Of a DNA stretch of 64,000 nt, positions 5,061 through 35,239 are shown piece after piece. The stretch lies in the NCBI GenBank assembly GCA_002269645.1, contig NIVC01002359.1:117001-181000 (forward strand). Direction: 5' to 3'. The notes beneath the pieces are model-generated. The model did no database searches and was not told where the DNA came from. It saw only the letters and a program-made list of their open reading frames with translations. The DNA is from Macrostomum lignano (lineage: Eukaryota). The translations under genes were made by a program, and so were the position numbers. Position 1 is the first letter of the stretch. Each line of letters begins with the position of its first letter.

Positions 5061-8000
5061 TTAAGATTTATAAATATTGTTAATAGCCCGACCAATAACT
5101 AGGCGTCGAACCTCGGACGTGCCGGCGCCAATTTCGTACAGTTTAGCGTCGCGCAGCAGCCGGCCAGCCGGGTATTCGTTAATATAGCCGTTGCCGCCCA
5201 GGATTTGAATGGCGTCCAGGGCCGACTGAGTGGCATCTTCGGCGCATTTCAGTATCACTCCGGCGCAGTCCATAGGCTGTCGCGAGCCCTGAGATGGAGA
5301 TAATAGGTTTCGAAGGAAGTATTAGAAGGGCCGGTCTATCCGGCCCTCCGGTCCTTTGAAACTTAGCAATAGCAATCCGGCCCGCTCAAGGTTTCTGTCT
5401 CTTTTACAGATACTCGTACTAAAATAACTAAAAAAATAGTTATTCCACTAGTATCCATGGTCTCTTCTCAGGTCTCTCTTTCTCTCCTTTTCTCTTATCT
5501 CCCTTCTTCTTACCTCTCCTCTCTTTTCTCTCCCTCTCCTATCACCTCTCGTCTATCATCCCCCTCTGTACACACTGTTGTACTCTCGTGCAGCAACCCT
5601 TACTTAACTTCCCAATTTTGCGACATCTTTTACACGCTATATATCTTTGGCCATCGTGGACACTGTGGTGAGCCACCAACACCCTGCTCTGTAGACACTG
5701 CAGTGAGACGCCTACACCCCCTCTGTGGACACTGCGGTAAACCGCCTGCATCCCCTCTGTGGACACTACGTAAACCGCCTACACCCACTCTGTGGAAACT
5801 GCACTGAGCCGCCTACACCTCATCTCATCCGTAACCCCCTGATCTCCATAGGTTTTACTTGCCTATCCAAAAGGTTCTACTGTTGACAATATGTTGAGTG
5901 AAGCCCACCATACATGCGCAACCCGCCTGATTTACACTGGCCATGCGACTTACTTTTTGACCAAAAATGCGACTTACCTGTGAAAGAAACCCTAACGCAA
6001 TTTTGGGTAAACGGCAGGAGTAACTATGACTGTCTTATAAGGGCTAAATGCCTCGTCATCCAATTAGTTCTACGTCTGTATTCTTTAGGCTGGGCATTTT
6101 TGCGACTTACCCCTTGTCCACCACAATTTACGGTGGCCAGATCGGCCAGGTCGGCCAGCAGTTGCGCATGTATGAAGCCCACCAATAACTAAACTGTAAA
6201 TATATATACATATAACAGGTGTAAACACACACAGCCACTCACCTGAGCCAGAGCCCTAGCAACAGAATAAACGTAGCACCGACCACTAGTCAATCGGCAA
6301 TACATATCGGCCATTTTGCCTTGCAACAATTGAAACTGCCCAATAGACTGGCCAAACGCTTTGCGAATGTGGGCATATTGGAATGCGGTATCGCAGGCGG
6401 CCTGCATAATACCCAACGGCCCGGCAGACAATAGCAGCCGTTCAATGTCCAGGCCGGACATCAGCACGTACACGCCACCGTCTAGGCGGCCCATGACCCG
6501 ATCAGCCGGCACTCGAACTCCGTCGAATACCAATTCGCCCGTGTTGCTACCCCGCATGCCAAGTTTGTCCAGCTTGCGAGAACAACTGAAACCGGGCGAG
6601 TCTCGCTCTACTAGAAATGTTGTAATACCGTGCGCCCCAGCCTCCGGTTTAGTCTTGGCGTACACCACTATTACATCCGCGTCTGGACCGTTGGTGATCC
6701 AAAATTTGCTGCCATTCAGCACGTAGGAGCCGTCAGACTGACAAAGAGAGATATTTTCGAAAAAATCATCACTGAAGATACCTTTTAGTCTGAATATTTA
6801 ACTCTTGTTGCTGAGTAGCCCTTGCCTAATACTGGCTTCAAGACTCTTTGCTGAGTAGCCCTTGCCTAATACTGGCTTGAAGACTCTTTGCTGAGTAGCC
6901 CTTGCCTAATACTGGCTTCAAGACTCTTGTTGCTGAGTAGCCCTTGCCTAATACTGGCTTCAAGACTCTTGTTGCTGAGTAGCCCTTGCCTAATACTGGC
7001 TTCAAGACTCTTTGCTGAGTAGCCCTTACCTAATACTGGCTTCAAGACTCTTGTTGCTGAGTAGCCCTTGCCTAATACTGGCTTCAAGACTCTTTGCTGA
7101 GTAGCCCTTGCCTAATACTGGCTTCAAGACTCTTGTTGCTGAGTAGCCCTCGCCTAATACTGGCTTCAAGACTCTTTGCTGAGTAGCCACTGCCTAATAC
7201 TGGCTTCAAGACTCTTTGCTGATATATCGTGTGGATTCATTACTTTATCTTTTTTTTAAACTTTATAAACCCCAATAAACGGAAATTCCCCAGAGTAAAT
7301 AAAGTTAGTATCGCCATTATTACCTGCTTGTCGGCGCGCATAGTCATCGACACAACGTCGGACCCGGCATTTGGTTCCGACATTGCTAGCGCGCCAATCC
7401 ATTCGCCGCTAATTAATTTCGGCAGGTAACGGCTCTTCTGCTCGTCGGTGCCGTGTCGGACAATCTGATTGACGCACAGGTTCGAATGGGCTCCGTAGCT
7501 TAGGGCCACTGCGGCGCAGGCCCGGGACATCTCCTCCATTACGATGGCGTGATCCAGGTAGGAGGCGCCCAGGCCACCGTACTCCGCTGGGGAAATTCCA
7601 TGGTAAAGGTGGTGATTCTTTATGAGAGGGTAGGGATTCTTGATGGGAGGGTAGGGATTCTTGATGGGAGGGTAGGGATTATTGATGGGAGGGTAGGGAT
7701 TCTTGAAGGGATAGTAGGGATTCTTGATGAGAGAGTAGGGATTCTTGATGGGAGGGTAGGGATTCTTGATGAGAGGGTAGGGATTCTTGATTGGAGGGTA
7801 GGGATTCTTGATTGGAGGGTAGGGATTCTTGATGAGAGGGTAGGGATTCTTGAAGGGATAGTAGGGATTCTTGATGAGAGAGTAGGGATTCTTGATGGGA
7901 GGGTAGGGATTCTTGATGGGAGGGTAGGGATTCTTGATTGGAGGGTAGGGATTCTTGATTGGAGGGTAGGGATTCTTGATGAGAGGGTAGGGATTCTTGA

Positions 8001-16186: not shown

Positions 16187-18061
16187 ATGTATTTGTACTT
16201 TGAATTCACTGACACTGTGAAAAACCTTCTGTTCAAGGGCTGGAATGCATCAACACCATCAGGTGAGAATAACATTTTGTTGCTTGATTTTTCCTAGTTT
16301 GTCAGCTTCTGCAAGACAATGTTTGCATTTTTATAACATACCATTTATTTTCTTACTTTTAGGCTTGATTATAGTATGCCTGATTGCTGGCATTGTCACG
16401 CTGCTATATGAACTGTTGATGTCATATCATGAGATTCTAATGACCGCCGCTAACAATTTCAATGCTCGCTACCAGACTAGCGTGTCTACTAATAGGCACA
16501 TTGGCGGCCCACGCGTGAAGTAAGCTGCTTCACTTGCAACTTGTAATGCCATGTAATATATAGATAACATAAATATAATGATACATTGATTGAATTATAG
16601 GTACAACAATGCATACAATATTCATAATTGATTAAATTGATTGATTCAAAGAGTAATAGTGCGGTAGATTGTGAAGTTTTTTTATATTCCTATTTACTAC
16701 TTAGAATGTCTAGCACTGAAGTACTACTAGCACTGGGGCTAATTATCGTCTCAATGAGTGAGTTCTCCAATAGTCAGTTAAAACAAAATTATACAAAATG
16801 TGCAAAATATTTAGATGCGCGATTTTCAAAGAAATACACCCTTTCACAATAGCTTACAGGTGACTGCGGACCAGAGGGGAGAGAGAGGAGGGAAGAGAAA
16901 AGAGAGAGTAGAAAGGAGAGCAGGGGTGTCGCCACCCGGCGAAGACAGGGGGGCATGCCCCCCCCAGTGAAAGCTATGGGGTGGACATGCCAATGCTTTC
17001 CCCCCCCCCTCCCACACACACAACCTTGTGACCCGTTATGAAAATCAATAACTTTGCTTCAGGGTGACAAAATATAGCGCCTGCGGCACCAAATTGAGTG
17101 CCCGAGGCGCTAAAATGAGTGTCTGCGGCGCTAAAATGAGTGCTTGCGGCGCTAAAATAAGTGCCTGCGGCGCTAAAATGAGTGCCTGCGGCGCCGAAAT
17201 GAGTGCCCGAGGCGCTAAAATGAGTGTCTGCGGCGCCGAAATGAGTGCCCGAGGCGCTAAAATGAGTGTCTGCGGCGCTAAAATGAGTGCCCGAGGCGCT
17301 AAAATGAGTGTCTGCGGCGCTAAAATGAGTGCCTGCGGCGCTAAAATGAGTGTCTGCGGCGCTAAAATGAGTGCCTGCGGCGCTAAAATGAGTGCCTGCG
17401 GCGCTAAAATGAGTGCCTGCGGCGCCAAAATGAGTGCCCGAGGCGCTAAAATGAGTACTGATGAATGAATATCAGTATGAATACCGATTCTGAAAATAAT
17501 GTACATGTACAATTTTTGACTTGGCCCCCCCCCACCATAAAATCCATGGCGACGCCCCTGAAGGAGAGGGGGGAAGTGAGAACAGACGAAATTGGAGAGG
17601 AGAGAAGAGAGGAGACAACAGAGAAGAGAGCTGAGCAGAGACAAACCTTGAGCGGCCCGGATTGCTATTGTGAAGTTTCAAAGGACCCGAGGGCTGGAAC
17701 GGATCGAGAGGCTTCGCGGGCTTCTACTTATAGTAGCATGCAGCTAATCTATGCAGCACTACAGTGTGCTCTAATCCTACACGATGCACTCCGCAGACTG
17801 GCCTACGCGACAATGTCAAGCGCAGTGTACACAGTCCGGGTACTGATCTCCATGCTGCTAATGTTGGCTGTGATGACCTACAATGCGTGGATTTTCCTGT
17901 CAGTCGTGCTTGGCAGCGCTGTCGGCTACTTTTTGTCCCCGTTGGCGCGTCGGGCATTTCGCCCCTGCATTGCCGCCACCTTCTCCACTGCCGCTGCGGA
18001 TGATGCAGCTGTTGACGTATTCACCACCTCTGCCAGCTCTGCGCATGAGCTCAATGACTGA
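16187..18061 (+). CDS. SLC31A: Ctr/SLC31 copper transporter; three exons identified (an upstream phase-0 exon may exist)
   Basis: Exons 16178/16187-16262 (MYLYFEF...LLFKGWNASTPSG), 16363-16519 (TM1, IVTLLYELL) and 17734-18061, GT-AG with phases 1 and 2 consistent. TM2 MxxxM motif MLAVMTYN and TM3 GxxxG motif GSAVG are present. Confidence 0.9.
16853..17715 (-). mobile_element. MITE-like CT-core repeat, copy D, interrupted by a nested hAT MITE (Ctr intron 2)
   Basis: Left-end block at ~17630-17700 and right-end block (TCTGGTCCGCAGTCA on minus) at ~16860-16875; the GA-rich core is split at 16921-17560. Confidence 0.65.
16921..17560. mobile_element. 640-bp hAT-type MITE with an internal 21-bp tandem array (~17070-17456)
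   Basis: TIRs CAGGGGTGTCGCCA / TGGCGACGCCCCTG (13/14); perfect 8-bp TSD AAGGAGAG (16913-16920, 17561-17568); internal unit GAGTGCCTGCGGCGCTAAAAT. Confidence 0.9.
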
Positions 18062-23810: not shown

Positions 23811-24457
23811 TGTGTTTTCCAGTTCTGTGATTAAGGCTTGTGCTGGATAGGTTGCAAGGCCCGAAAACCAGTCAGCTATCATCAGCAGTAAATTTGGACA
23901 CCTCGACAGGTCTGTGTAATAAACAAAAATCAATTCTAACACTTGCATGGTGGTCTATTTGCTCCAGGATAAACAGACAGCAACAGGTTTTGCTAATCCT
24001 AGCTGTTGGCGGCATTGGTAGAGAGGCTTGGCTTTTTGCTTAATTCTGCCTTATCGCAGACTATAAGATGATAGAAAAATGCCACAGGGGTCGAGACCGA
24101 GATGTCTGAACTCGATTATCGGACGAATAGCAGTTGGTAACAGAGTGTATCAGGCAGTGTTCAGGTGAGAGGCTTACAGGATCAAAAACGGACACCGCCA
24201 AATCTGCTGGTGTCTGCAGCAGTCGGATCGGCCTGTGGTGATAAAAATTGACTGCAAAATTAAGTGAAAGTCAGGTTAATGCAGACGTTGCATGGGCCGA
24301 GTGTGCATTTAAAGAATGTGTTGCTTTCACTTCACCATCAGGTTTCAAGGTTTCAAGCAACATGTGTAAAATTTACAGAACCGTGATATACATGAGCCTG
24401 CAAAGCAATGCTTGACTAGCGAGTAGTTGAGCTTGCGGAGGGAGTGAGTTATAAATG

Positions 24458-25056
24458 TGAATCGTATCGAGAATCACTCTGTGAATCGTATCGAGAATCA
24501 CTCTGTGAATCGTATCGAGAATCACTCTGTGAATCGTATCGAGAATCACTCTGTGAATCGTATCGAGAATCACTCTGTGAATCGTATCGAGAATCACTCT
24601 GTGAATCGTATCGAGAATCACTCTGTGAATCGTATCGAGAATCACTCTGTGAATCGTATCGAGAATCACTCTGTGAATCGTATCGAGAATCACTCTGTGA
24701 ATCGTATCGAGAATCACTCTGTGAATCGTATCGAGAATCACTCTGTGAATCATATCGAGAATCACTCTGTGAATCGTATCGAGAATCACTCTGTGAATCG
24801 TATCGAGAATCACTCTGTGAATCACACAGAGAATCGCTCTGTGAATCACACAGAGAATCACTCTGTGAATCACACAGAGAATCGCTCTGTGAATCACACA
24901 GAGAATCGCTCTGTGAATCACACAGAGAATCGCTCTGTGAATCACACAGAGAATCACTCTGTGAATCACACAGAGAATCACTCTGTGAATCACACAGAGA
25001 ATCACTCTGTGAATCACACAGAGAATCACTCTGTGAATCACACAGAGAATCACTCT
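24458..25056. repeat. 24-bp minisatellite in two variant blocks (GTGAATCGTATCGAGAATCACTCT, then GTGAATCACACAGAGAATCACTCT)
   Basis: Direct tandem copies with a variant switch near 24815; source of ORFs 24373-25077. Confidence 0.95.
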
Positions 25057-25113
25057 AGCAGGCAGCTGAGGTGACATTTAAATCAACAGAACGGAAGCTC
25101 GCATCCTTGTAAT

Positions 25114-25813
25114 TGTTGGGCTGCGCCCTTCCAGTGTGTATGTACTCGTACTTTTGTTTTCAGTTTTCATGCCACCCCGCCCCGTCCCCCGTCTCGCGCC
25201 CGGGCCAGGGTTTGTGAGAGGCGTAAGTCTCAACCCTGGCCTAGCCCTTTGCACCCAGCCCCCGGCCCAATCTCTGTCCAATCTGGGTGCCCCCCCCCTC
25301 CCTCGTTGCCCGCCTCACCCTGGGGCTGCTCGTATTGGCTGGCTGGCTGATAAGCCGGCTGGGCCCCAGGGTTTGGCTCGCCGTCTCCATTCTGCCCCAC
25401 CCCTCCCCTTTTTTGTGTATTATTTAAATGCTAGCCCTGAGCGGGCTGCGCTCCACGTTTGCTCTCTATTGGTGTCCGCTTCGTTCTTACTGTTTTTGCG
25501 TTCATCGGCGTACCTCTGCCTTCGCGTGCCAATAACTGCTTCGGGCCAATAAACGCTTCGTTAGTAACTCGATATATCAAGAGGAGGTGAGCTCGAGCTT
25601 TCGTTCTTCTGGGTTGCCGCGTGGGGCCGGGATCTGCAGGGACCTGGGAACGGTGAACTCTCGCCGATCCCAGGGTGTTCGGTCAGGCGAACTCTCGCCG
25701 AACCGAGCGAGACAGGGTAGGAATAGCCGGGGTGAGGGCTGGGACAGGGGTGTCTCAGGCGGGGAGGGCCCGAACCTTGACCCGTCCAGCGGCCATTAGG
25801 CCGAGACACAACA
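25114..25813 (+). repeat. 5' LTR (700 bp)
   Basis: Appears identical to 33056-33756 except for one C in a C-run. Contains TATTTAAA near 25420 and AATAAA at 25548-25553. Confidence 0.97.
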
Positions 25814-25815
25814 AG

Positions 25816-25833
25816 TGGTGCCGTGACCAGGAT
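25816..25833 (+). promoter_or_regulatory. Primer-binding site complementary to the tRNA-His(GUG) 3' end
   Basis: TGGTGCCGTGACCAGGAT, 2 nt after the LTR. Its reverse complement ATCCTGGTCACGGCACCA matches the invertebrate tRNA-His 3' end plus CCA as recalled. Confidence 0.85.
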
Positions 25834-25937
25834 CAGCGGTCCTCTCCCCTGCTGTCCTGCCGTGTGTTTAGGGTTGTGTGTGTTGCCTAGTTTATTTGTG
25901 TGTTGTTTGCTTCGGTTGTCTCTGTGTTTTTGTAGCC

Positions 25938-26918
25938 ATGGCCAATTTAGACGATCTGATTGACGCCCTGACGGCGCGTCTGCAAAACGAACTTAATGTG
26001 GCACAGCGGGTGCCGAGGCCAAATAAGTACGTGCCCACACAGGACTTTGCCCTTTGGATGCAACAATTCACAGGGTATTGTGAGGCGGCTCATATTCTAG
26101 GGGATCAGCGCAAGCAGGCGCTGCTCAGTCTGCTTGACTTTAATACTGCTTTCAAGGCTGTTGCGAATCTTGAGTTGGCCGATGATTTGCCGTATGATGA
26201 GTTTGTTGAGCAGCTAGAGGCTAGGTTTGATGAGAATAGGACTGCTCAAGATTACAAGACCGAGTTCCAGAGTAGGAATCAGAAAGATGGCGAGCCCATT
26301 GAAGAATATGCAGACGTGCTCAAGGAGCTTATGAGAAAATCGTACCCAATGCTGCCAGCGGCCCAGCGAGAAGAGTTGGTGAAAGACAGGTTTTTGAAGG
26401 GGATTCGGGTGCCAGCCCGGGTGCTGGAGAGCGTGCTGCTGCAAGCGCCAGAGACGCTCCAGGACGCTATTAGGCGGGTGCGTCAAGTGAGGGCATCGTT
26501 GGCTCTGATGGAGCCCGAGGGCAAGCGAGCTGTGCACATGGTGGGGGGTCAGGCCGCAGCGGCTGGCAACAGCCAGGAGTCCAGGGCAGCCGCCGAGATA
26601 GCAGCTCTGAAAGCGGAAGTGGCTCAGCTAAAAGCAAGTGCTGCAGCGCCCACTGCGCCGATGGCGACAGCAAGGTCTGAGCAGCCAAAAGTGAGCTTGC
26701 AGCATCGAGCCCCTGAGCAGAGTCAGCAGCAGAGGCAGTGTGGTCGGTGCCTGCAGACAGGGCATACTACGGCTCGGTGCCGTAATGCAGTGGTCTGCCG
26801 GGAGTGTGGCCAGTCAGGGCACATGCGCAACCGCTGCTATCGTCGGTGGGACCAGTCGGGTTCGGGAAACGGATTGGGGGCTCGGCCGGGGCACCCGTCC
26901 GGGCCCCAGCGTCAGTGA
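25938..26918 (+). CDS. gag: Gag (capsid-like domain plus two CCHC zinc knuckles)
   Basis: GCCATGG start context; QKDGEPIEEYADVLKELMRKSYP...LVKDRFLKGI gag motif; knuckles CGRCLQTGHTTARC and CRECGQSGHMRNRC. Confidence 0.95.
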   Translation: MANLDDLIDALTARLQNELNVAQRVPRPNKYVPTQDFALWMQQFTGYCEAAHILGDQRKQALLSLLDFNTAFKAVANLELADDLPYDEFVEQLEARFDENRTAQDYKTEFQSRNQKDGEPIEEYADVLKELMRKSYPMLPAAQREELVKDRFLKGIRVPARVLESVLLQAPETLQDAIRRVRQVRASLALMEPEGKRAVHMVGGQAAAAGNSQESRAAAEIAALKAEVAQLKASAAAPTAPMATARSEQPKVSLQHRAPEQSQQQRQCGRCLQTGHTTARCRNAVVCRECGQSGHMRNRCYRRWDQSGSGNGLGARPGHPSGPQRQ

Positions 26919-26928
26919 ATCCGGGTGC
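26864..26928 (+). promoter_or_regulatory. -1 programmed ribosomal frameshift signal: G GGA AAC slippery site plus H-type pseudoknot
   Basis: The heptamer 26864-26870 is in the correct gag phase. A 6-nt spacer precedes stem 1 (26877-26885 / 26899-26907) and stem 2 (26891-26897 / 26922-26928). A -1 shift enters the pol frame (GKRIGG...). Confidence 0.85.
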
Positions 26929-29900
26929 ATCGGGGGCCGCGGCCTTGTCCCAGAGTGTGCTGAGTCGGCAGGGACTGGGCTATGTGGATGCACAGTTTAG
27001 GTTTGGGCCCCCGATTGCATGTCTGCTTGACAGCGGGGCCACCGTGTCGTTGTTAAGCAACCGTTTCCTGAAGTCTAAAAAAGCCGACATTGACTTATTG
27101 CCGAATTTGCCGAATTTTTCCGTTTTCGCTGCCAATGGGGAACCGATTGCTGTACATGGAATGGTGACGATGAAGTTTTCTGTTGGGGACACCGAGTTTT
27201 TGCACGAGTTCGCTGTGGTCGAGGAACTGGCTGTGGCATGTATTCTGGGCACTGACTTTTTCGTGAGACACGGGATGGCGATTGACTTTGCTAGGAATTG
27301 CTTGCAGACTGCATCCTGTGTGTATCCGTTTCGCTTATCAGCAGATAAGCCGCGTCTTTGCCGTCTGGTGCTGAGTCAGCCTGAGCAGTTCAATGCAGGT
27401 CAAGAGAAGGTGGTGCACGTCAGGTTGCAGAGAAGGGTTCCCTCTGGGGTTCAGTTCCTAGGCATTGTGGAGTCTGAGAGGAGAGTGAGTAACGAGCAGA
27501 TGGTGGCCAGATCGGTACAGATGCCTGACGGGGACGGTCGCTTGGCTGTCAGGGTGTTGAACACGTCAGGATGCAGTCTGTCATTAAGGAAGGGAAGCCG
27601 AATTGGTTGGTTCTCCCCAGTGGCGGCCCAGCAGCCAGCTGGGTGGCAGGTGAACTCGGTGGAGAGTGTCCGAGACGACTGGAACCCCCTCAGCGATGTC
27701 AAGGAGTGGGGAGGATGTGGCCTGACGGGCGATGAGAAGCACGAGTTTGAGCGCCTGATGGCTCGGAATCGTGATGTCTTTGCCAGGGATAGCTCGGAGT
27801 TGGGACAGTCACACTTGATGGCGCATGAGATTGACACCGGCAACGCCAAGCCAGTAAGTCAGCCCGCGCGTAGGATTCCACCGCGCTGGAAGGAGGAAAT
27901 TGATAAGCAGGTTGATGAGTTGTTGCAGCAGGATCGCATCTATCCCTGCTACTCTCCGTGGGCGAGCCCGATCGTGCCGGTTAAAAAGGCCGACGGTAGC
28001 TTGAGGTTGTGTCTAGACTATCGGCGCCTTAACGAGGTCACAGTGCCAGATCCTTACCCACCGCCGCGGATGGACGAGACGCTTGATGCGCTAGGAGGGA
28101 ACTGTGTTTTCTCGACGATGGATCTGGCCTCCGGCTATCATCAGTGCCCGATTGAGCCGAAGGACCAGTTGAAAACGGCGTTCGTGGTACCCAACAGGGG
28201 TCAGTTCGCCTGGAAGTGCATGAGTTTTGGCTTGCGCAATGCTCCCGCTACGTTCGCCAGGCTAATGTCTATGGCCCTGTCTGAGGTTAACTGGAAGGAG
28301 TGCCTGGTGTACTTTGACGATATAGTCGTGTTCGCCAAGTCGGTGGGTCAGCATCTCGAGCGATTGAAGCATGTTTTCCAGTGCCTGAGGGATGCCAATG
28401 TCAAGCTGAAGCCCGCCAAGTGTGTGTTCCTCGCAGAGCGGGTGAAGTTTCTGGGCCACATCGTCTCTCAGGAGGGGATCGCAACGGATCCGAGCAAGTG
28501 CGAGGAGATCCAGAATTGGCCGAGGCCATGTAGCGCCAAGAAGGTGCAGGCATTCCTGGGTACGTGCGCCTACTATCAGTCATTTATCCCGCAGTTTTCA
28601 GAGATTGCAGCGCCGCTGTATAGGTTAACCGCAGACGGAGTGAAGTTTGAGTGGGGTAGTGAAGAGGAGAGCTCGTTTTGCAGGCTGAAAGACGCTTTGT
28701 GTTCACCGAATGTGATGGCATTCCCGGATTTTTCGCCTGGTGCCGGGGAGTTCATCCTCGACACGGACGCCAGTTCGCGCGTCGGGCTGGGAGCCGTCCT
28801 GTCACAGCGTCAAGCAGATGGCCGTGAGAAGGTGATCGCTTACGGGTCTAGGATGATTCATGCGGCGGAGAAAAATTATTGCACCACCAGGTTAGAGTTG
28901 CTTGCCGTCGTGCACTTCGTCAAAAAGTATAGGTACTATTTGTTAGGTAGAAAGTTCACTGTTCGTTCAGACCACAAAGCTTTGCAGTGGCTAGCCAGTC
29001 TGAAGGACGTAGAGGGTCAGTGCGCAAGTGGCTTGAGTCGCTCCAGAACTTCGACTTTGAGATCATTCACAGGCCAGGCAAGGAGCACGGCAACGCTGAT
29101 TCGCTGTCTCGCAAGTACCGAAAACACGCTGGCCATGAGAGCTGCCCTAGCTGCCAGTTTAGCGAGAATGTGCCAGTAGTGAACGCGGTGTTTGGCAGTG
29201 GGCTGTCTTTGAAGGAAGTCCAGCAGGCGCAAGTGGCCGAGAAGAAGCTTGCAGCTGTCCGCTCCTATGCCCTGGACCCGGGTTCGAACCCCAGTGCGCC
29301 TAGAGTGATGTCGTGGGAGGAGCGTGTGCTGTGGGCACAACGGCAGCTGATAAGAGTAGAGTCTGATCTGTTGTATTTTCAGAGTCCCGGGAGTGGGTGC
29401 CAGAAAAAGATCTTGCTGCCGCCGGCTTTGCTGCCGAAAGTGCTCAGTGAGCTTCATGATGGGGTTGCAGGAGGGCACCTTGGGGTTAGGAAGACACAAG
29501 AGAAAGTGAAGGCGAGATACTGGTGGCCGGGGCTGAGTCGTTCCGTGGAAGAGTATTGCCGGAGCTGTGTCCACTGTGCGAAGGCGAAGCCTGGCGCAGC
29601 AACCGGGCGCCTTTGCAGCCAATCTGCTCGGAAGGAGCTTTCCAGAGGATCATGAGTGACATTGTCGGGCCGTTGCCCAAGTCCAGAGGTGGCAATCGAT
29701 TCGTGCTGACAATCCAGGATTCTTTTACTAAGTGGCCGGTGGCGGTGCCCTTGTCCAATCAGCGAGCCCCGACGGTGGCGCGAGCGATTTTTGATCACTG
29801 GATTGCGCACTTTGGTTGTCCTGAATTTCTAGTCACCGATAAGGGCACCAATTTTGAGTCGGCTTTGATGAAGCAGTTGTGTCGGTTGCTTGCCGTTAAG

Positions 29901-30800
29901 AAATGCAGAACGTCCTCCTATCACCCGATGGCTGATGGTCAGGCTGAGAGTTTCAATAAGACGTTGAAGTCAATGATCAAGTGCAGGATGAGTGAGTCGG
30001 TGGGCGAAGGAGACTGGGAGGATCTGATCCACCCGTCTCTCATGGCGTACCGTAGCAGCGTTCACAGAGGCACGGGGTACACCCCGTACTACATGCTGTA
30101 CGCCAGGGAGATGCGGCTTCCAGTGGACATTGGAACCTTGCCTGAGTCCATTCCTGCCAGTGCTCCGGCGTATGTTCAGTCATTAGGTAATAGTCTGGCT
30201 GAGGCTCATTCGCAGGTGCGGACCAACCTGCAGCAGTACCAGAGGAAACAGAAAGTGCTGTACGACTCAAGGGTGCGAGGCCCGGCCATAGAAGTTGGGG
30301 ATGCCGTCCTAGAATACTCGCCTGCGCTGCAGGCAGGGGAGGCAGCCAAGTTCCATTGCAATTGGAAGGGGCCGGCGAAGGTGTTAGAGAAGATATCCGA
30401 TTTGAATTACCGGGTAAAGCACGCCAATAGGGGAAAGAGCAAAATAGTGCATTATAATAATTTGCGAAAAGTACCCGAGCGGCCTGAGCAGTTCAGGTTG
30501 ATGAATAGGCATACGGCAGTGCAGCGCCGGTCGGCGCATCCGCCTGAGCCGGCAGGGTGCAGACAGGAGCCCGCGGGGCCGGCGACTAAAGAGCCGGAAC
30601 TTGAGGAGGAGGAGGAGTTTTACTCGTATGTGGTGCCACCAGTTGCCGTTGGGCCTCGGCATGGGATAGTAGGGCCGGGAACGCCAGTTGCGCCATGCGC
30701 ACCGGTGGCTCCAGCGGCGCCAGCCGTGTCTCCGCGCAGACTGCGCGAGCGTCGGGGTGTGCCCCCAGCGTATTACGGGAATCCGGTATTGTATCGTTAA
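26864..30800 (+). CDS. pol: Pol polyprotein (protease, RT, RNase H, integrase), split in this sequence by two single-base deletions
   Basis: Protease LLDSGAT; RT LCLDYRRLN, DLASGYHQ, YFDD; RNase H FILDTDAS, TRLELLAVV; integrase HDGVAGGH...CVHC, DIVGPL, TDKGTNF, GQAESFN, WKGPAKV. Frame breaks at ~29028 and ~29594. Confidence 0.95.
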
Positions 30801-31138
30801 TTCGCAGTGGGCTCACAAGGCGGTCGTCATAAATTGATTTTTAATATGCACTTGTATTAATGCCTCCACGCTGTTGTCTATGGTAGAAAGCCTAAAATAA
30901 CCTAAAATGAAAAAAATGATACAACCCCAAAGCACAAAAAAATTCATAAAATGGAACGCATGAAAAGCACATAAAAAACATTAAATGTATTAAAATTACA
31001 AAGTATGCTAGGCAAGAAGCGTTCTCAATCGTATTGTAAAATAAACATGTCATAGGATGGGTCAGGTCAGGGTCACAGTTGCTAGTCCGCAAGGCATAGG
31101 TAGTGATTGGGTTTAAATGTCATCATTGCAGGAGGACC

Positions 31139-32815
31139 ATGTCGTCGCCAACGACACCGACTGATTTGTATGGCGTGTTAGGCGTGGGTCGGACTGCTAA
31201 CTCTGCGGAGATTGAGGCAGCGTGTAGTCGTCTGTACTCAAAGCGGCCCCGCGTCTGTCCTGCCGAGGTAGAGTCTCCGGAGTCTCAGCGAGACGTGATG
31301 GCGATGTGCGTTTTATCTGACCCAGTGTTTCGGGAAGTATACGATCGGGTTGGAGAGGCAGCGTGTCAAGGGGTGTTAAAGTACGCCTACTTTTTCAATC
31401 CTCCCCCTGACGTTGAGTTGCCCGAGCAGGTCAGGTTAGCTTTGGCTAGTCTTAAGGGAAGCGCCGCAGGGGAAGCTCCAGTTCACGCGGAGATCCCAGC
31501 CGAGTTATTGGCTCCGGCTGCGCTTGCTGAGTGTAGGCGGCTGAGGGGTGCGCTGCTGGCGCGGTTGAGGGCTGGGGATAGTGAAGGAGCTTGCCTGGTG
31601 GTTCAGGAGGTGGCGAGGTTTCTTGATGGGGCTGGTGTGAGTGTGCCTGAGCAGTTGTCTAGATTCTTAGCAGTGTCTGTGTCGTTTCTGTGCAATCAGT
31701 ATGGGCGGAAGAGAGGTTCTGGTGGTGGTTCCGGGAGGTGTCGGAGGGTCCCGCCTTCGGTGCTGCAGGCGGCGTTTGAGTGCGTGTTGTTGGCTGTGCG
31801 GGGTTTTGAGCTGTGTGAGTTGGGGGGTCCCTTGTTGGGGAGGCTCCGGGGTCTGTCTCTCTTAGTGGATCCTGGCCTCGCGCGGCGCCCGGAGGAGGGG
31901 AGTGACGGGCCGCACCTTTCGCAGACTCCGCTGACGGCCCAGCGCGACTTGGCGACCGAAGAGTTAACGGGTGTCGACCCCGAGCAAGTACGACCGGCCG
32001 ACACGGTCCAGGAGGTCTCCCCCCGTGACGACCCGAATCAGCGCAAGGTCAGCTCGGCTAAGCGTCTCGTCGATGCAAAGGCATACCTAACGAGGCTGGG
32101 CCGGTCGATTCAGCCCGAGGACCTTCGTGGCGTGCGTCGATGTCTAGCGGCTGTAAACTCGCCGTACTGCCTGCGTCTAGAATGTCCCGTTGTCCGACCA
32201 CTGCTGCAAGACCGACGGATCGTGTTCGCCCTGGGCCTGAAGGCCAGTGCTGCACCGTGGTGGCCATCGCTGCGAGACGATGTACGACGATTTCTAGCGG
32301 GTAGCTGGCCGCGTGTCGTGGCGGTCGGCGAAGTCGAGCTCAATTGGGACGCTGAGAGGTCGCAGCGCCAGGACCAGTTAACGGCGGCGATGGAGCAGTT
32401 CTTGCTTGCCAAGGAGTTCGGCCTGCCGGTTTTGTTCCGAGTTGAAGGCGGCGAACCTGCCTGGGCGGTCGCCCTAGGATTCCTCCGGCAGCCGGAGTTT
32501 CAAGCGATGAGCGTCATGCTGGCCGAGGACCTGGACTTGCCGGAGGCCGTCGAGGCCGCGCTGGTGAGCAAGTGCCACGGGGTCTTCTTCGAGGTGTCCG
32601 CTCGGTGCCGAGGATCCCCGCGAGCGGTCCAACGGGCTAAGCGTCTCCCGCGGCAGCGCCTGCTAGTGACATCGGCCGCACCGTTTGGTGGAGACCCCAA
32701 GGACCCGACAGCCATCAAGTTCGTGCCGGAAGCCCTAGCGGACAGTGAATGTGATCGCAGGTACTGGACTCGACTGTTTGCGACCAACTGTAGTAGATTT
32801 TTTGGCCGATTGTAG
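31139..32815 (+). CDS. ORF3 cargo protein: degenerate J-domain, helical linker and catalytically degenerate TatD-like domain (558 aa from the ATG)
   Basis: Uninterrupted ORF with ACCATG start. J-like DLYGVLGV...EIEAACSRL...VLSDPVFREVYDRVGE (31163-31357). TatD-like from RLVDAKAYL (32063) through VVAVGEVELN, LAKEFGLPVLF and RLPRQRLLVTSAAP to TNCSRFFG. Domain calls are by eye. Confidence 0.82.
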   Translation: MSSPTTPTDLYGVLGVGRTANSAEIEAACSRLYSKRPRVCPAEVESPESQRDVMAMCVLSDPVFREVYDRVGEAACQGVLKYAYFFNPPPDVELPEQVRLALASLKGSAAGEAPVHAEIPAELLAPAALAECRRLRGALLARLRAGDSEGACLVVQEVARFLDGAGVSVPEQLSRFLAVSVSFLCNQYGRKRGSGGGSGRCRRVPPSVLQAAFECVLLAVRGFELCELGGPLLGRLRGLSLLVDPGLARRPEEGSDGPHLSQTPLTAQRDLATEELTGVDPEQVRPADTVQEVSPRDDPNQRKVSSAKRLVDAKAYLTRLGRSIQPEDLRGVRRCLAAVNSPYCLRLECPVVRPLLQDRRIVFALGLKASAAPWWPSLRDDVRRFLAGSWPRVVAVGEVELNWDAERSQRQDQLTAAMEQFLLAKEFGLPVLFRVEGGEPAWAVALGFLRQPEFQAMSVMLAEDLDLPEAVEAALVSKCHGVFFEVSARCRGSPRAVQRAKRLPRQRLLVTSAAPFGGDPKDPTAIKFVPEALADSECDRRYWTRLFATNCSRFFGRL

Positions 32816-33043
32816 AGTAGAATTGCGTTCTTAAGCCCGTTTTCAATTTTTGCGTACGCAATAGTTTGTGTCCCGTTTTCATTTTTTCGTTTTTGTTTTT
32901 TGTAATGCCGGCGATATCCACGCGTCGCGTCAAAGTTTTTCTGTTATTTTTCGGCCGTCGTTTCTTGAATAAACTTTTTTTCAGACTTGCTTGTTCATGC
33001 GTTGCTTTTTGCTTGACATCCCCTTTCTCCTCTTCTTTTTCTT

Positions 33044-33055
33044 GGAGGGGGAGGA
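33044..33055 (+). promoter_or_regulatory. Polypurine tract
   Basis: GGAGGGGGAGGA immediately before the TG of the 3' LTR. Confidence 0.92.
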
Positions 33056-33756
33056 TGTTGGGCTGCGCCCTTCCAGTGTGTATGTACTCGTACTTTTGTT
33101 TTCAGTTTTCATGCCACCCCGCCCCGTCCCCCGTCTCGCGCCCGGGCCAGGGTTTGTGAGAGGCGTAAGTCTCAACCCTGGCCTAGCCCTTTGCACCCAG
33201 CCCCCGGCCCAATCTCTGTCCAATCTGGGTGCCCCCCCCCTCCCTCGTTGCCCGCCTCACCCTGGGGCTGCTCGTATTGGCTGGCTGGCTGATAAGCCGG
33301 CTGGGCCCCAGGGTTTGGCTCGCCGTCTCCATTCTGCCCCACCCCTCCCCCTTTTTTGTGTATTATTTAAATGCTAGCCCTGAGCGGGCTGCGCTCCACG
33401 TTTGCTCTCTATTGGTGTCCGCTTCGTTCTTACTGTTTTTGCGTTCATCGGCGTACCTCTGCCTTCGCGTGCCAATAACTGCTTCGGGCCAATAAACGCT
33501 TCGTTAGTAACTCGATATATCAAGAGGAGGTGAGCTCGAGCTTTCGTTCTTCTGGGTTGCCGCGTGGGGCCGGGATCTGCAGGGACCTGGGAACGGTGAA
33601 CTCTCGCCGATCCCAGGGTGTTCGGTCAGGCGAACTCTCGCCGAACCGAGCGAGACAGGGTAGGAATAGCCGGGGTGAGGGCTGGGACAGGGGTGTCTCA
33701 GGCGGGGAGGGCCCGAACCTTGACCCGTCCAGCGGCCATTAGGCCGAGACACAACA
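33056..33756 (+). repeat. 3' LTR (701 bp)
   Basis: Direct repeat of 25114-25813; AATAAA at 33491-33496; followed by TSD TAAT. Confidence 0.97.
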
Positions 33757-35239
33757 TAATAAAACAATCAAAGAGCAGAGCACCCCCCCCCCCCCCTAAG
33801 CCACAGCAAAGCAAATCTATGGGAAGTCCTTTCGATACTGCAGCGCAGCATGTGGGGAAAATTTTGGATCGCATTCCCCCTAATAAATCAAGTTCCTAAG
33901 GGGTGGGGGTTTATGGGGGACCATGGCAATGGCAATAATAATTTTTCCTAACTGATTTACGATTCATTCAAAGCAATCTATATATAAAAAGCCTAGTGGC
34001 GGTGGTGGGCCCATGAGGGAGGGGGTGCGGCGGTCCCCGTTTGCGAGTCAAAGCTAACAGTTGTCATAAATCATAAACCTCGCGGCTTGGGCATTGAAGC
34101 AGAAATTAGCTCTGTTTATTATATACAATAAATATACATAGTTCTACAGTTGCGGTTTGTTCAACAGTCCTAAGGCCGGGGGCTATTTGTCAAGACTACA
34201 GCAATTAGCCACCCCTTCTGTCTGTTTGCTTGCGAGAGGGGTTCTGTTCAAGACTTGATAGTTGCAACTGTCAACTATTACAGAAATTGGATTAAAATAG
34301 ATAAACAGAGGCTCGCTTTCGTGGTTGCTGTCCTGTCTTCTCTTTCCCTCTATCTATTTGCAACTCTGTTTGATCATTGCCGCCGCAGTGTTCGCTGGTC
34401 TGTGGGCAAGAGTTGAAATTTAACCAAAAAAATTCTTCACAATAATAACGCTGCTTCTAATCAGCTTTAACGGTTGGGGCTTCGCGCTGTCTGTCTGTCA
34501 CAAATGTGAATATCAATGTGTTTTATCTCCATATGTGTGTTGTCTCTCGGCCTCTGTGAACTTGTGGCGGCTAAACCGCCGCGGCCTGTCACTGTCACCC
34601 CCCCCCCCTGTGCTGGAGATGACAGGCTGACAGGGCAGAGATACCGAGAGCCGCTTTCAAAGCAGTTTTGACAGGCGGTTTATCAAAAGCCCGACACACC
34701 AAAGCCGCACATCAGCTGGAGGCCGCCTTGAAAGCTATAGTAGTCAACTAAGCAGAATTCTCAGCCGTTCTGTCAGAGAGCTGACAGATAGGATCAGCCC
34801 CCCCCCCCTAAAGAGATTTCTTCCAGGGTTTGATTTCGGTGCAACGCTTGACAGTATAGTTTAGCCGCGCATTTTGCATTTTGCTTGTTGTGACAGCCAG
34901 CAATATTAGCTACCTCTTATTCTCTTAAAGATACCATGTTTTTCCTGCTTTTCCTATGCATAAGTCATACTGAATAGCGCAATAAAAACCTACTTACGAG
35001 TAGGCAAATAAAAATGATATATGATCCTAATGCTTACTAACAACTTGTTTACTAAGAATTGGGGTAAATAAGATTTTTATGCCTCCAAATCTGTGGGGTA
35101 GGAGAACTTGGGAAGCCGGGTGAGTCACTGAAGATTTTTATACAGTTTACACTCGTAAATCCCCTAAACTTGCTTTGAGGCTACCAGGCTCAGTCCCGTC
35201 TCTGAAGGTTAACTGCTAAATTCGGTGGGCCTGAATTGC

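Follow-up and report, generated by a model that had tools for sequence, protein, structure and literature searches.

What can a retrotransposon do with a nuclease fold from which nearly the whole active site has gone? This question is raised by a locus of Macrostomum lignano (GenBank assembly GCA_002269645.1, contig NIVC01002359.1, positions 117,001 to 181,000 of the forward strand), a stretch of 64,000 nucleotides that we call the window and number from its first base. The window carries a complete long terminal repeat (LTR) retrotransposon of Ty3/gypsy type (25114–33756), which houses between its LTRs an additional open reading frame, ORF3 (31139–32815, forward strand), of 558 amino acids (aa) from the ATG at 31139 and 571 codons from stop to stop. 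A sequence-only reading of the window had described 32063–32815 as a TatD-like domain that looks like a pseudo-nuclease, selected for a non-catalytic nucleic-acid-binding or decoy role. The region is indeed open on the forward strand and reads as noted, and the domain is real, but it forms the last 250 residues of a longer protein that starts with a J-like domain lacking the HPD motif. We lean towards the view that ORF3 does accessory work for the element: a TatD barrel without metals and a J domain without HPD would serve as binding modules, with the element particle, or host factors involved in processing or silencing the element, as their targets. We regard this view as somewhat more probable than its negation.

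A TatD-derived barrel with a degenerate site

The C-terminal domain of ORF3 (32063–32812, forward strand) is derived from TatD. Pfam TatD_DNase matches it with 26 bits (E 7.2e-6, profile positions 53–250 of 253) against a cut-off of 27 bits, and NCBIfam TIGR00010 matches it with an E-value of 3.8e-5, far beneath the 206-bit cut-off of that family; TatD scores below the cut-offs are expected for a degenerate family member. All 30 ESM Atlas matches of the domain are TatD (0.93). A profile of 82 TatDs scored the domain at 43.0 bits, compared with −3.0 for the reversed domain and 3.5 for the best of 500 shuffles, a generous control in that its references were picked for similarity to the query. 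Identity to the reference TatDs is 20–33%. AlphaFold modelled the domain at a pLDDT of 92 when given the TatD alignment and at 40 from the single sequence. The comparison with solved TatD structures that the sequence-only reading had called for returned TatD-type proteins as the top nine matches of the domain model (Z 23–29, rmsd 2.2–2.6 Å over 235–240 residues; next match at Z 19), among them 6l25 at Z 29.1 and TATDN1 at Z 24.9, and Foldseek agrees, although the match is partly circular, the model having been derived from an alignment of TatDs. Profile scores against solved structures were 26.9 bits for YcfH, 21.2 for TATDN3, 17.6 for TATDN1, and 14.6 for E. coli TatD, with E-values of 3e-5 for S. 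aureus YcfH, 0.0016 for human TATDN3 (one stretch, 82–251), and 0.17 for E. coli TatD; the best sequence and fold matches thus favour TatD group II. We take the N-terminal half of the domain to look TATDN2-like.

To define the active site, the domain was aligned with 83 reference TatDs, consisting of 77 from the best 80 of 189 GTDB loci (one was too short, and two near-duplicates were dropped) and six of nine TatD-like proteins. P0003, a 166-aa protein fragment that is 49–51% identical to the ORF3 domain and spans five of the eight sites, was added. The eight site residues are the HxH pair, the GxHP His, the bridging Glu, the β5 His, the β6 His, and the Glu and Asp of β8. ORF3 keeps one of them, the bridging Glu of GExGLD (E90, 32330), which is likewise kept in P0003. 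Neither the N-terminal HxH of group II nor the (G/A)xN of group I is present, and K6-x-Y8 (32078 and 32084) stands at the HxH histidines. The phosphate-contacting His of GxHP is K60 (32240), with K60-A61 in place of His-Pro, a position that P0003 does not cover. The β5 His is R126 (32438) and the β6 His (xH[C/S]F) is A154 (32522) in A154-E155-D156, where P0003 has Arg and Ser; the Glu-Thr-Asp of β8 is T203-S204-A205 (32669 for T203, 32675 for A205), and Ala-Ser-Gly in P0003. P0003 therefore keeps the bridging Glu, matches ORF3 in having Arg at the β5 His, and is without the remaining three of the residues that it covers. The motif mapping of the sequence-only reading is right by this alignment, and its near-total loss of ligands is confirmed and extended by the β6 His, which it had not listed; the terminal N..RFFG is retained as claimed, with N242 in place, as are fold and length.

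Such a site is rare among the references, 72 of which have all eight residues, ten have six or seven, and a single one (P0005) has one. The loss is also concentrated on the site: one of eight site residues is kept, compared with 16 of the 26 further columns that are at least 85% conserved (Fisher p 0.02), and without the columns fixed by the search pattern the figures are 0 of 7 and 12 of 19 (p 0.005). The scaffold positions that are kept are Gly, Pro, Ala, Gln, and Asn. P0005 is itself a degenerate TatD that resembles actinobacterial TatDs and looks unrelated to ORF3, which suggests independent pseudo-TatD lineages in bacteria.

Relatives and the age of the degenerate state

Searched exhaustively, 1.84 billion representatives yielded 12 matches: two near-copies (P0001 and P0002), P0003, and nine ordinary TatD-like proteins with 26–38% identity. 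P0001 and P0002 are 96–97% copies within chimeric gene models whose remaining parts are unmatched in the window. P0001, a UniRef ‘J domain-containing protein’ of Macrostomum lignano, is 99% identical over 94% of the domain. Both probably stem from other copies of the element. P0003 is a different case. Of 74 residues of ORF3 that are rare in TatDs, 29 are common to P0003, including W95, R126, E155, D156, E177, and C182, and the distance between the two is about 1.8 substitutions per site. In a quick tree, which took in prokaryote-type TatD references and no eukaryotic TatD, ORF3 groups with P0003 in one clade (SH-aLRT 99) on a stem of 3.5 substitutions per site, with tips of 0.8 and 1.04; the join of this clade with P0005 was flagged as long branches meeting. 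The phylogeny that had been proposed for finding the donor gene hence delivered the ORF3/P0003 clade but named no donor from these references.

Because P0003 retains the same Glu, is without the other site residues in its span, and shares replacements with ORF3, the comparison supports a degenerate state that would be old and maintained. Such selection might have operated on the element, or on a host gene prior to its capture. On the other hand, a once-active captured TatD might be degenerating without function, with its frame open by luck. This fits the low identity of the domain to any TatD, the broken pol of the same copy (see below), and the circumstance that a function of ORF3 is itself read from sequence; yet the loss falls on site residues while the scaffold is kept, the new residues are common to ORF3 and P0003, and 571 codons are free of stops after several substitutions per site, where the longest open stretch in 2000 base-shuffles averaged 106 and reached 297 at most. 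A frame that had decayed neutrally over such distances would by now be broken, which argues that the state is maintained, and we consider the decay explanation extremely unlikely.

Other searches bear on how widespread such proteins are. Word-based searches for homologues found none among 8000 scored proteins of 313–998 aa with full ORF3, and none among 3053 of 137–438 aa with the domain. A profile search of proteins of 439–2000 aa found two in 8000, P0001 and an ordinary bacterial TatD, and no host-like protein with both J and TatD domains. As P0003 was missed by these searches, they are weak evidence of rarity. A GTDB scan confirmed only ordinary TatDs among the best 80 of 189 loci (19–37% identity over long matches) and no close prokaryotic relative. 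A phage search returned five unannotated records at 25–35% identity, and a viral fold library gave one TatD-like match (Yasminevirus, 18%).

Catalysis and metal binding

Mutants of active TatDs give a mixed picture of how much each ligand matters. In TATDN1, both activities dropped only when the bridging Glu was changed to Ala, single mutants of Asp and His ligands were mild, His77 mattered for cleavage of apurinic/apyrimidinic (AP) sites, and all site mutants retained residual activity, while in TATDN3 the D218A mutant lowered activity 30-fold (PMC10085689). In the group II enzyme QatD, E194 and D196, the equivalents of T203 and A205, are needed for activity and several ligand mutants fail to fold, and His62 of E. 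coli TatD, which is K60 in ORF3, is cited as essential (PMC13434339). Since ORF3 has lost, apart from the bridging Glu, all these site residues together, TatD-type catalysis by its barrel would be unlikely, a judgement of which we are fairly confident. K6, K60, and R126 would fit a barrel in which side chains stand in place of metals and pair with E90.

A rewired enzyme is a further possibility, in which E90 together with E155, D156, and E177 would bind Mg or Ca and support a weak or different hydrolase, for example one that trims 3′ ends of element cDNA or RNA, as proposed for the DEDDy ORF3s of other elements. Its attraction is that the one residue kept in both ORF3 and P0003 is the Glu whose mutation was most damaging in TATDN1. 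Moreover, E155 adjoins the lost β6 His and lies, by motif mapping, at the position of a putative third-metal residue of TATDN1, P0003 has a His two residues after R126, and LTR elements of bdelloid rotifers carry ORF3s that look like active 3′–5′ exonucleases (PMC5408684). However, the five His and the Glu and Asp of β8 are gone together rather than singly, Arg stands at a metal-ligand position in each of the two sequences, the His of P0003 is Glu in ORF3, and group II enzymes require the β8 carboxylates in the accounts cited above. We therefore rate a rewired enzyme as unlikely.

Binding by the barrel

The sequence-only reading had assigned the barrel a nucleic-acid-binding or decoy role, and here only part of its proposal stands. 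A pseudo-nuclease kept by selection is supported by the site-biased loss and by P0003 being alike at the five covered sites, whereas the role itself meets changed DNA contacts. TATDN1 engages phosphate through its metals and contacts DNA through His77, Arg119, and Arg151 (PMC10085689). The corresponding positions (His62/77, Arg119, and Arg151 of TatD/TATDN1) are K60, A97, and E128 in ORF3, as mapped by motif through the E. coli alignment, and because these residues are changed a TatD-like mode of DNA binding appears unlikely. The same substitutions count against a decoy in the strict sense, namely a barrel whose old pocket would still take up substrates of TATDN1/2/3 or of APE1 (single-stranded DNA ends, AP sites, R-loops) and so shield retrotransposition intermediates from these enzymes. 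The preserved fold and length agree with such a decoy, and so does the net charge of the domain, which at +8 exceeds that of every one of the 83 references (mean −10.6, sd 4.9, maximum +6). Yet the charge excess is confined to the first 85 residues, and the segment common with P0003 is neutral in both proteins. GC-rich codons also favour Arg. On this evidence, we see little chance that the barrel is a decoy of this kind.

The J-like domain, the middle region, and expression

The N-terminus of ORF3 is homologous to J domains (residues 8–82, 31160–31384, forward strand), with a match to NCBIfam DnaJ (E 4e-7 across profile positions 1–73) and to solved structures. The best of the latter is DNAJB13 (RSPH16; E 3.4e-6), whose own motif is altered to HPL. 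ORF3 instead has RPR (31244) in the place of HPD and, compared with DNAJB13, is without the DnaJ C-terminal domains; the match is about 20-fold better than that of the canonical DnaJ2 (E 8e-5), a margin that falls short of showing descent. HPD is required for J domains to stimulate Hsp70. As the J-like domain lacks HPD and the TatD barrel lacks the two-metal site, both captured domains of ORF3 read as forms without their working motif. Between them lies a middle region of ~220 residues (31385–32062) without a Pfam family, for which the ESM Atlas gave a lead to ARM-like helical repeats at 0.84, under the reliable range. An envelope-type (env) ORF3 was considered and rejected, as there is no env family match and the highest 19-residue hydropathy, 1.49, is below transmembrane strength.

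The reading frame also has features of a spliced message. Both database gene models, P0001 and P0002, take the acceptor AG at 31130–31131, 7 nt 5′ of the ORF3 ATG, and a donor-like site lies at 25587 in the 5′ LTR, which together suggest a predicted spliced ORF3 message. LTR elements typically make spliced ORF3 messages (PMC5408684). Within ORF3, an in-frame stretch of 288 nt (31637–31924) with strong GT..AG ends is left out by both gene models, and its skipping may yield a shorter isoform.

The host element

The element is very young, because its 5′ LTR (25114–25813, 700 nt) and 3′ LTR (33056–33756, 701 nt), both with TG...CA ends, differ by one base only, an indel in a C run. A TAAT target-site duplication of 4 bp (25110–25113 and 33757–33760) borders the element, all parts of which lie on the forward strand. 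The 5′ LTR has a TATA-like box at 25421, AATAAA at 25548, and AG|GTGAG as the donor-like site. A primer-binding site (25816–25833) begins with TGG 2 nt past the LTR. We take this site to match tRNA-His. The gag frame (25938–26918, with its first ATG read off the sequence) matches Retrotrans_gag (E 9e-5) and has two CCHC knuckles. It is followed by pol (26786–30800) with protease, reverse transcriptase (RT), RNase H, and integrase in that order, spread over three overlapping frames (26786–29179, 28951–29655, and 29490–30800). The best solved-structure match of the RT is the Ty3 RT (E 1e-85), and the order of gag and the pol domains is that of Ty3/gypsy. Within the gag/pol overlap, a G GGA AAC heptamer in the gag frame (26864–26870) suits a −1 frameshift site; the RNA 3′ of it folds no better than shuffles (z −0.1). 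The pol of this copy has two frame breaks, near 29025 and 29600, which despite the near-identical LTRs may be real mutations or assembly errors. An A-rich spacer (30801–31131; 37% A, AATAAA at 31040) ends in the acceptor-like AG before ORF3, and a T-rich 3′ untranslated stretch (32816–33040; 47% T, AATAAA at 32968) and a polypurine tract (33044–33055) follow it.

The T-rich stretch raises the question of whether ORF3 was recently picked up as cargo. Under this explanation, the pseudo-TatD or the whole J–TatD fusion arose and was selected as a Macrostomum host gene, of which the retrotransposon recently took a processed copy, and P0003 would be that gene or a relative. The T-rich stretch, which has an AATAAA of its own, looks like the end of a captured mRNA; moreover, the element is very young, and P0003 is known as a protein fragment only. 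Degenerate TatD paralogues also exist in cells (P0005, one of 83 references), and the best J match, DNAJB13, is already without HPD. Set against these points, the only near matches are element copies (P0001 runs into LTR sequence), the third-position GC of ORF3 is like that of pol (0.63–0.68 vs. 0.66), and no host-like J and TatD protein was found at 313–998, 137–438, or 439–2000 aa, even if the same word-based searches missed P0003. We judge recent capture of a ready-made host protein to be rather unlikely.

A link to heat shock, suggested by the J domain and by the heat-induced LTR families of M. lignano (PMC12801592), was rejected. The LTR has no match to the canonical heat-shock element (HSE; nGAAn inverted arrays), even with up to two mismatches, and because of this the element is not placed among those families.

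In the surroundings, an array of 24-nt and 12-nt tandem repeats (24312–25058) ends ~50 nt from the insertion point, and the CpG observed/expected ratio is 0.90 within the element (25813–33055) vs. 0.59 and 0.69 in its flanks. Host coding pieces match an acyl-CoA dehydrogenase (6189–6797, reverse strand; Pfam E 2e-21) and a Ctr copper transporter (17465–18061, forward strand; E 1e-13). There are no tRNA or Rfam matches in the 64-kb window.

A possible role for ORF3

According to the explanation that we favour, ORF3 would have been assembled from two captured cellular domains, each of which lost its working motif, and would be expressed from a spliced subgenomic RNA with its donor in the LTR and its acceptor 7 nt before the ATG. 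In the barrel, the basic residues K6, K60, and R126 would pair with E90 and with E155 or E177, replace the metals, and keep the barrel folded. Without TatD-type nuclease activity, the barrel would bind through its remodelled face, and the J-like domain would offer a protein–protein contact that is unable to stimulate Hsp70. The protein would then be of use to the element, which it would most likely serve by binding the RNA/cDNA particle or those host proteins through which the element is processed or silenced.

A more specific version would make ORF3 a double pseudo-enzyme directed against host defence. In planarian stem cells, a DnaJ (DNAJA1) step keeps the PIWI protein SMEDWI-2 stable (reviewed in PMC11663942). 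By analogy, an HPD-less J domain might act as a dominant negative on a PIWI-stabilising step of DnaJ and Hsp70, while the disarmed TatD grips element RNA or cDNA, so that ORF3 would suppress piRNA silencing. We regard this version as very unlikely to be the right one.

Several points weigh against the accessory-protein explanation. With the DNA-contact residues changed, net charge would be the sole pointer to nucleic-acid binding. The case for long-term maintenance has one fragment behind it, P0003 (166 aa); P0001 and P0002 are near-copies that add nothing independent, and in so young a copy an open frame by itself shows no selection. In TATDN1, the Glu that ORF3 keeps was the only one needed, and mutating the Asp or the two His ligands one at a time had hardly any effect (PMC10085689). 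As to the alternative ligands that the sequence-only reading had named as a refuting condition, the carboxylates E155, D156, and E177, conserved with P0003, may form a new metal site together with E90; the β7 register that bears E177 is ambiguous, shifting by two residues between aligners. Finally, the splice use in P0001 and P0002 is the output of a gene predictor and may lack transcript support.

Known systems and what the finding means

The nearest relatives of the barrel are the TatD group II proteins (YcfH, YjjV, TATDN2, and TATDN3; PMC10085689), with which it has in common the TIM barrel, length, motif spacing, and bridging Glu. It differs from them as described in having neither HxH nor (G/A)xN, in the replacement of seven of eight site residues and of the DNA contacts, in its fusion to a J domain, and in being encoded by a retrotransposon. 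The capture of enzymes as non-env ORF3 is already known in bdelloid rotifers, whose LTR elements carry DEDDy 3′–5′ exonucleases and GDSL esterases of putative function (PMC5408684). Those ORF3s are likewise placed between pol and the 3′ LTR, and they come from captured enzyme families, one of them a 3′–5′ exonuclease, but they keep their catalytic residues (only the GDSL derivatives of Athena-L lack them), have another fold, and carry no J domain. Nuclease folds that outlast their catalytic residues are found in Maelstrom/EXD1 (described in PMC5408684) and in fungal RNase II-like pseudonucleases (PMC8097288). These are host genes of other folds with RNA binding shown by experiment, whereas for ORF3 binding is inferred only.

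The Ty3/Mdg4 families of M. lignano (Mag, CsRN1, Gmr1/Osvaldo, and Mdg3; PMC12801592) agree with our element in likely host and in superfamily, and the HSE-bearing LTR families of that study differ from it in their LTRs. In the available part of its main text, PMC12801592 is silent on TatD, on DnaJ cargo, and on extra ORFs, and the first 19 nt of the LTR are absent from its five supplements. The term TatD has no occurrences in the available text of PMC12801592, PMC5408684, and PMC8775202. We found no paper that places TatD in a retrotransposon, in a literature search that did not extend to subscription journals, Repbase, or GyDB. Some invertebrate repeat entries may carry TatD-like annotations, in which case curators may already know of the capture. 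For the Hox cluster of the giant squid, a figure legend places a ‘TATDN2’ gene with the transposon-related genes POGK and ZMYM1 (PMC6962438), which hints at mobile elements with TatD-like genes in further invertebrates.

The non-env extra ORFs of LTR retrotransposons are largely unexplained. ORF3 is unusually readable among them, with two recognisable host domains that appear stripped of their catalytic or activating motif, and that one of these seems to have been kept so across a long evolutionary distance speaks for the use of some captured enzymes by transposons as modules for binding. The weight of this argument is limited, as it has one young element family and one distant fragment behind it, and the binding role is inferred. 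The barrel would be a natural catalytically dead TatD, useful for probing what the barrel does without metals. In a tractable model animal, ORF3 offers a specific candidate for a factor with an accessory or anti-silencing role, and if the PIWI-interference version were true, captured host domains would have given a retrotransposon its own suppressor of piRNA silencing, in an animal for which transgenesis and RNAi are available.
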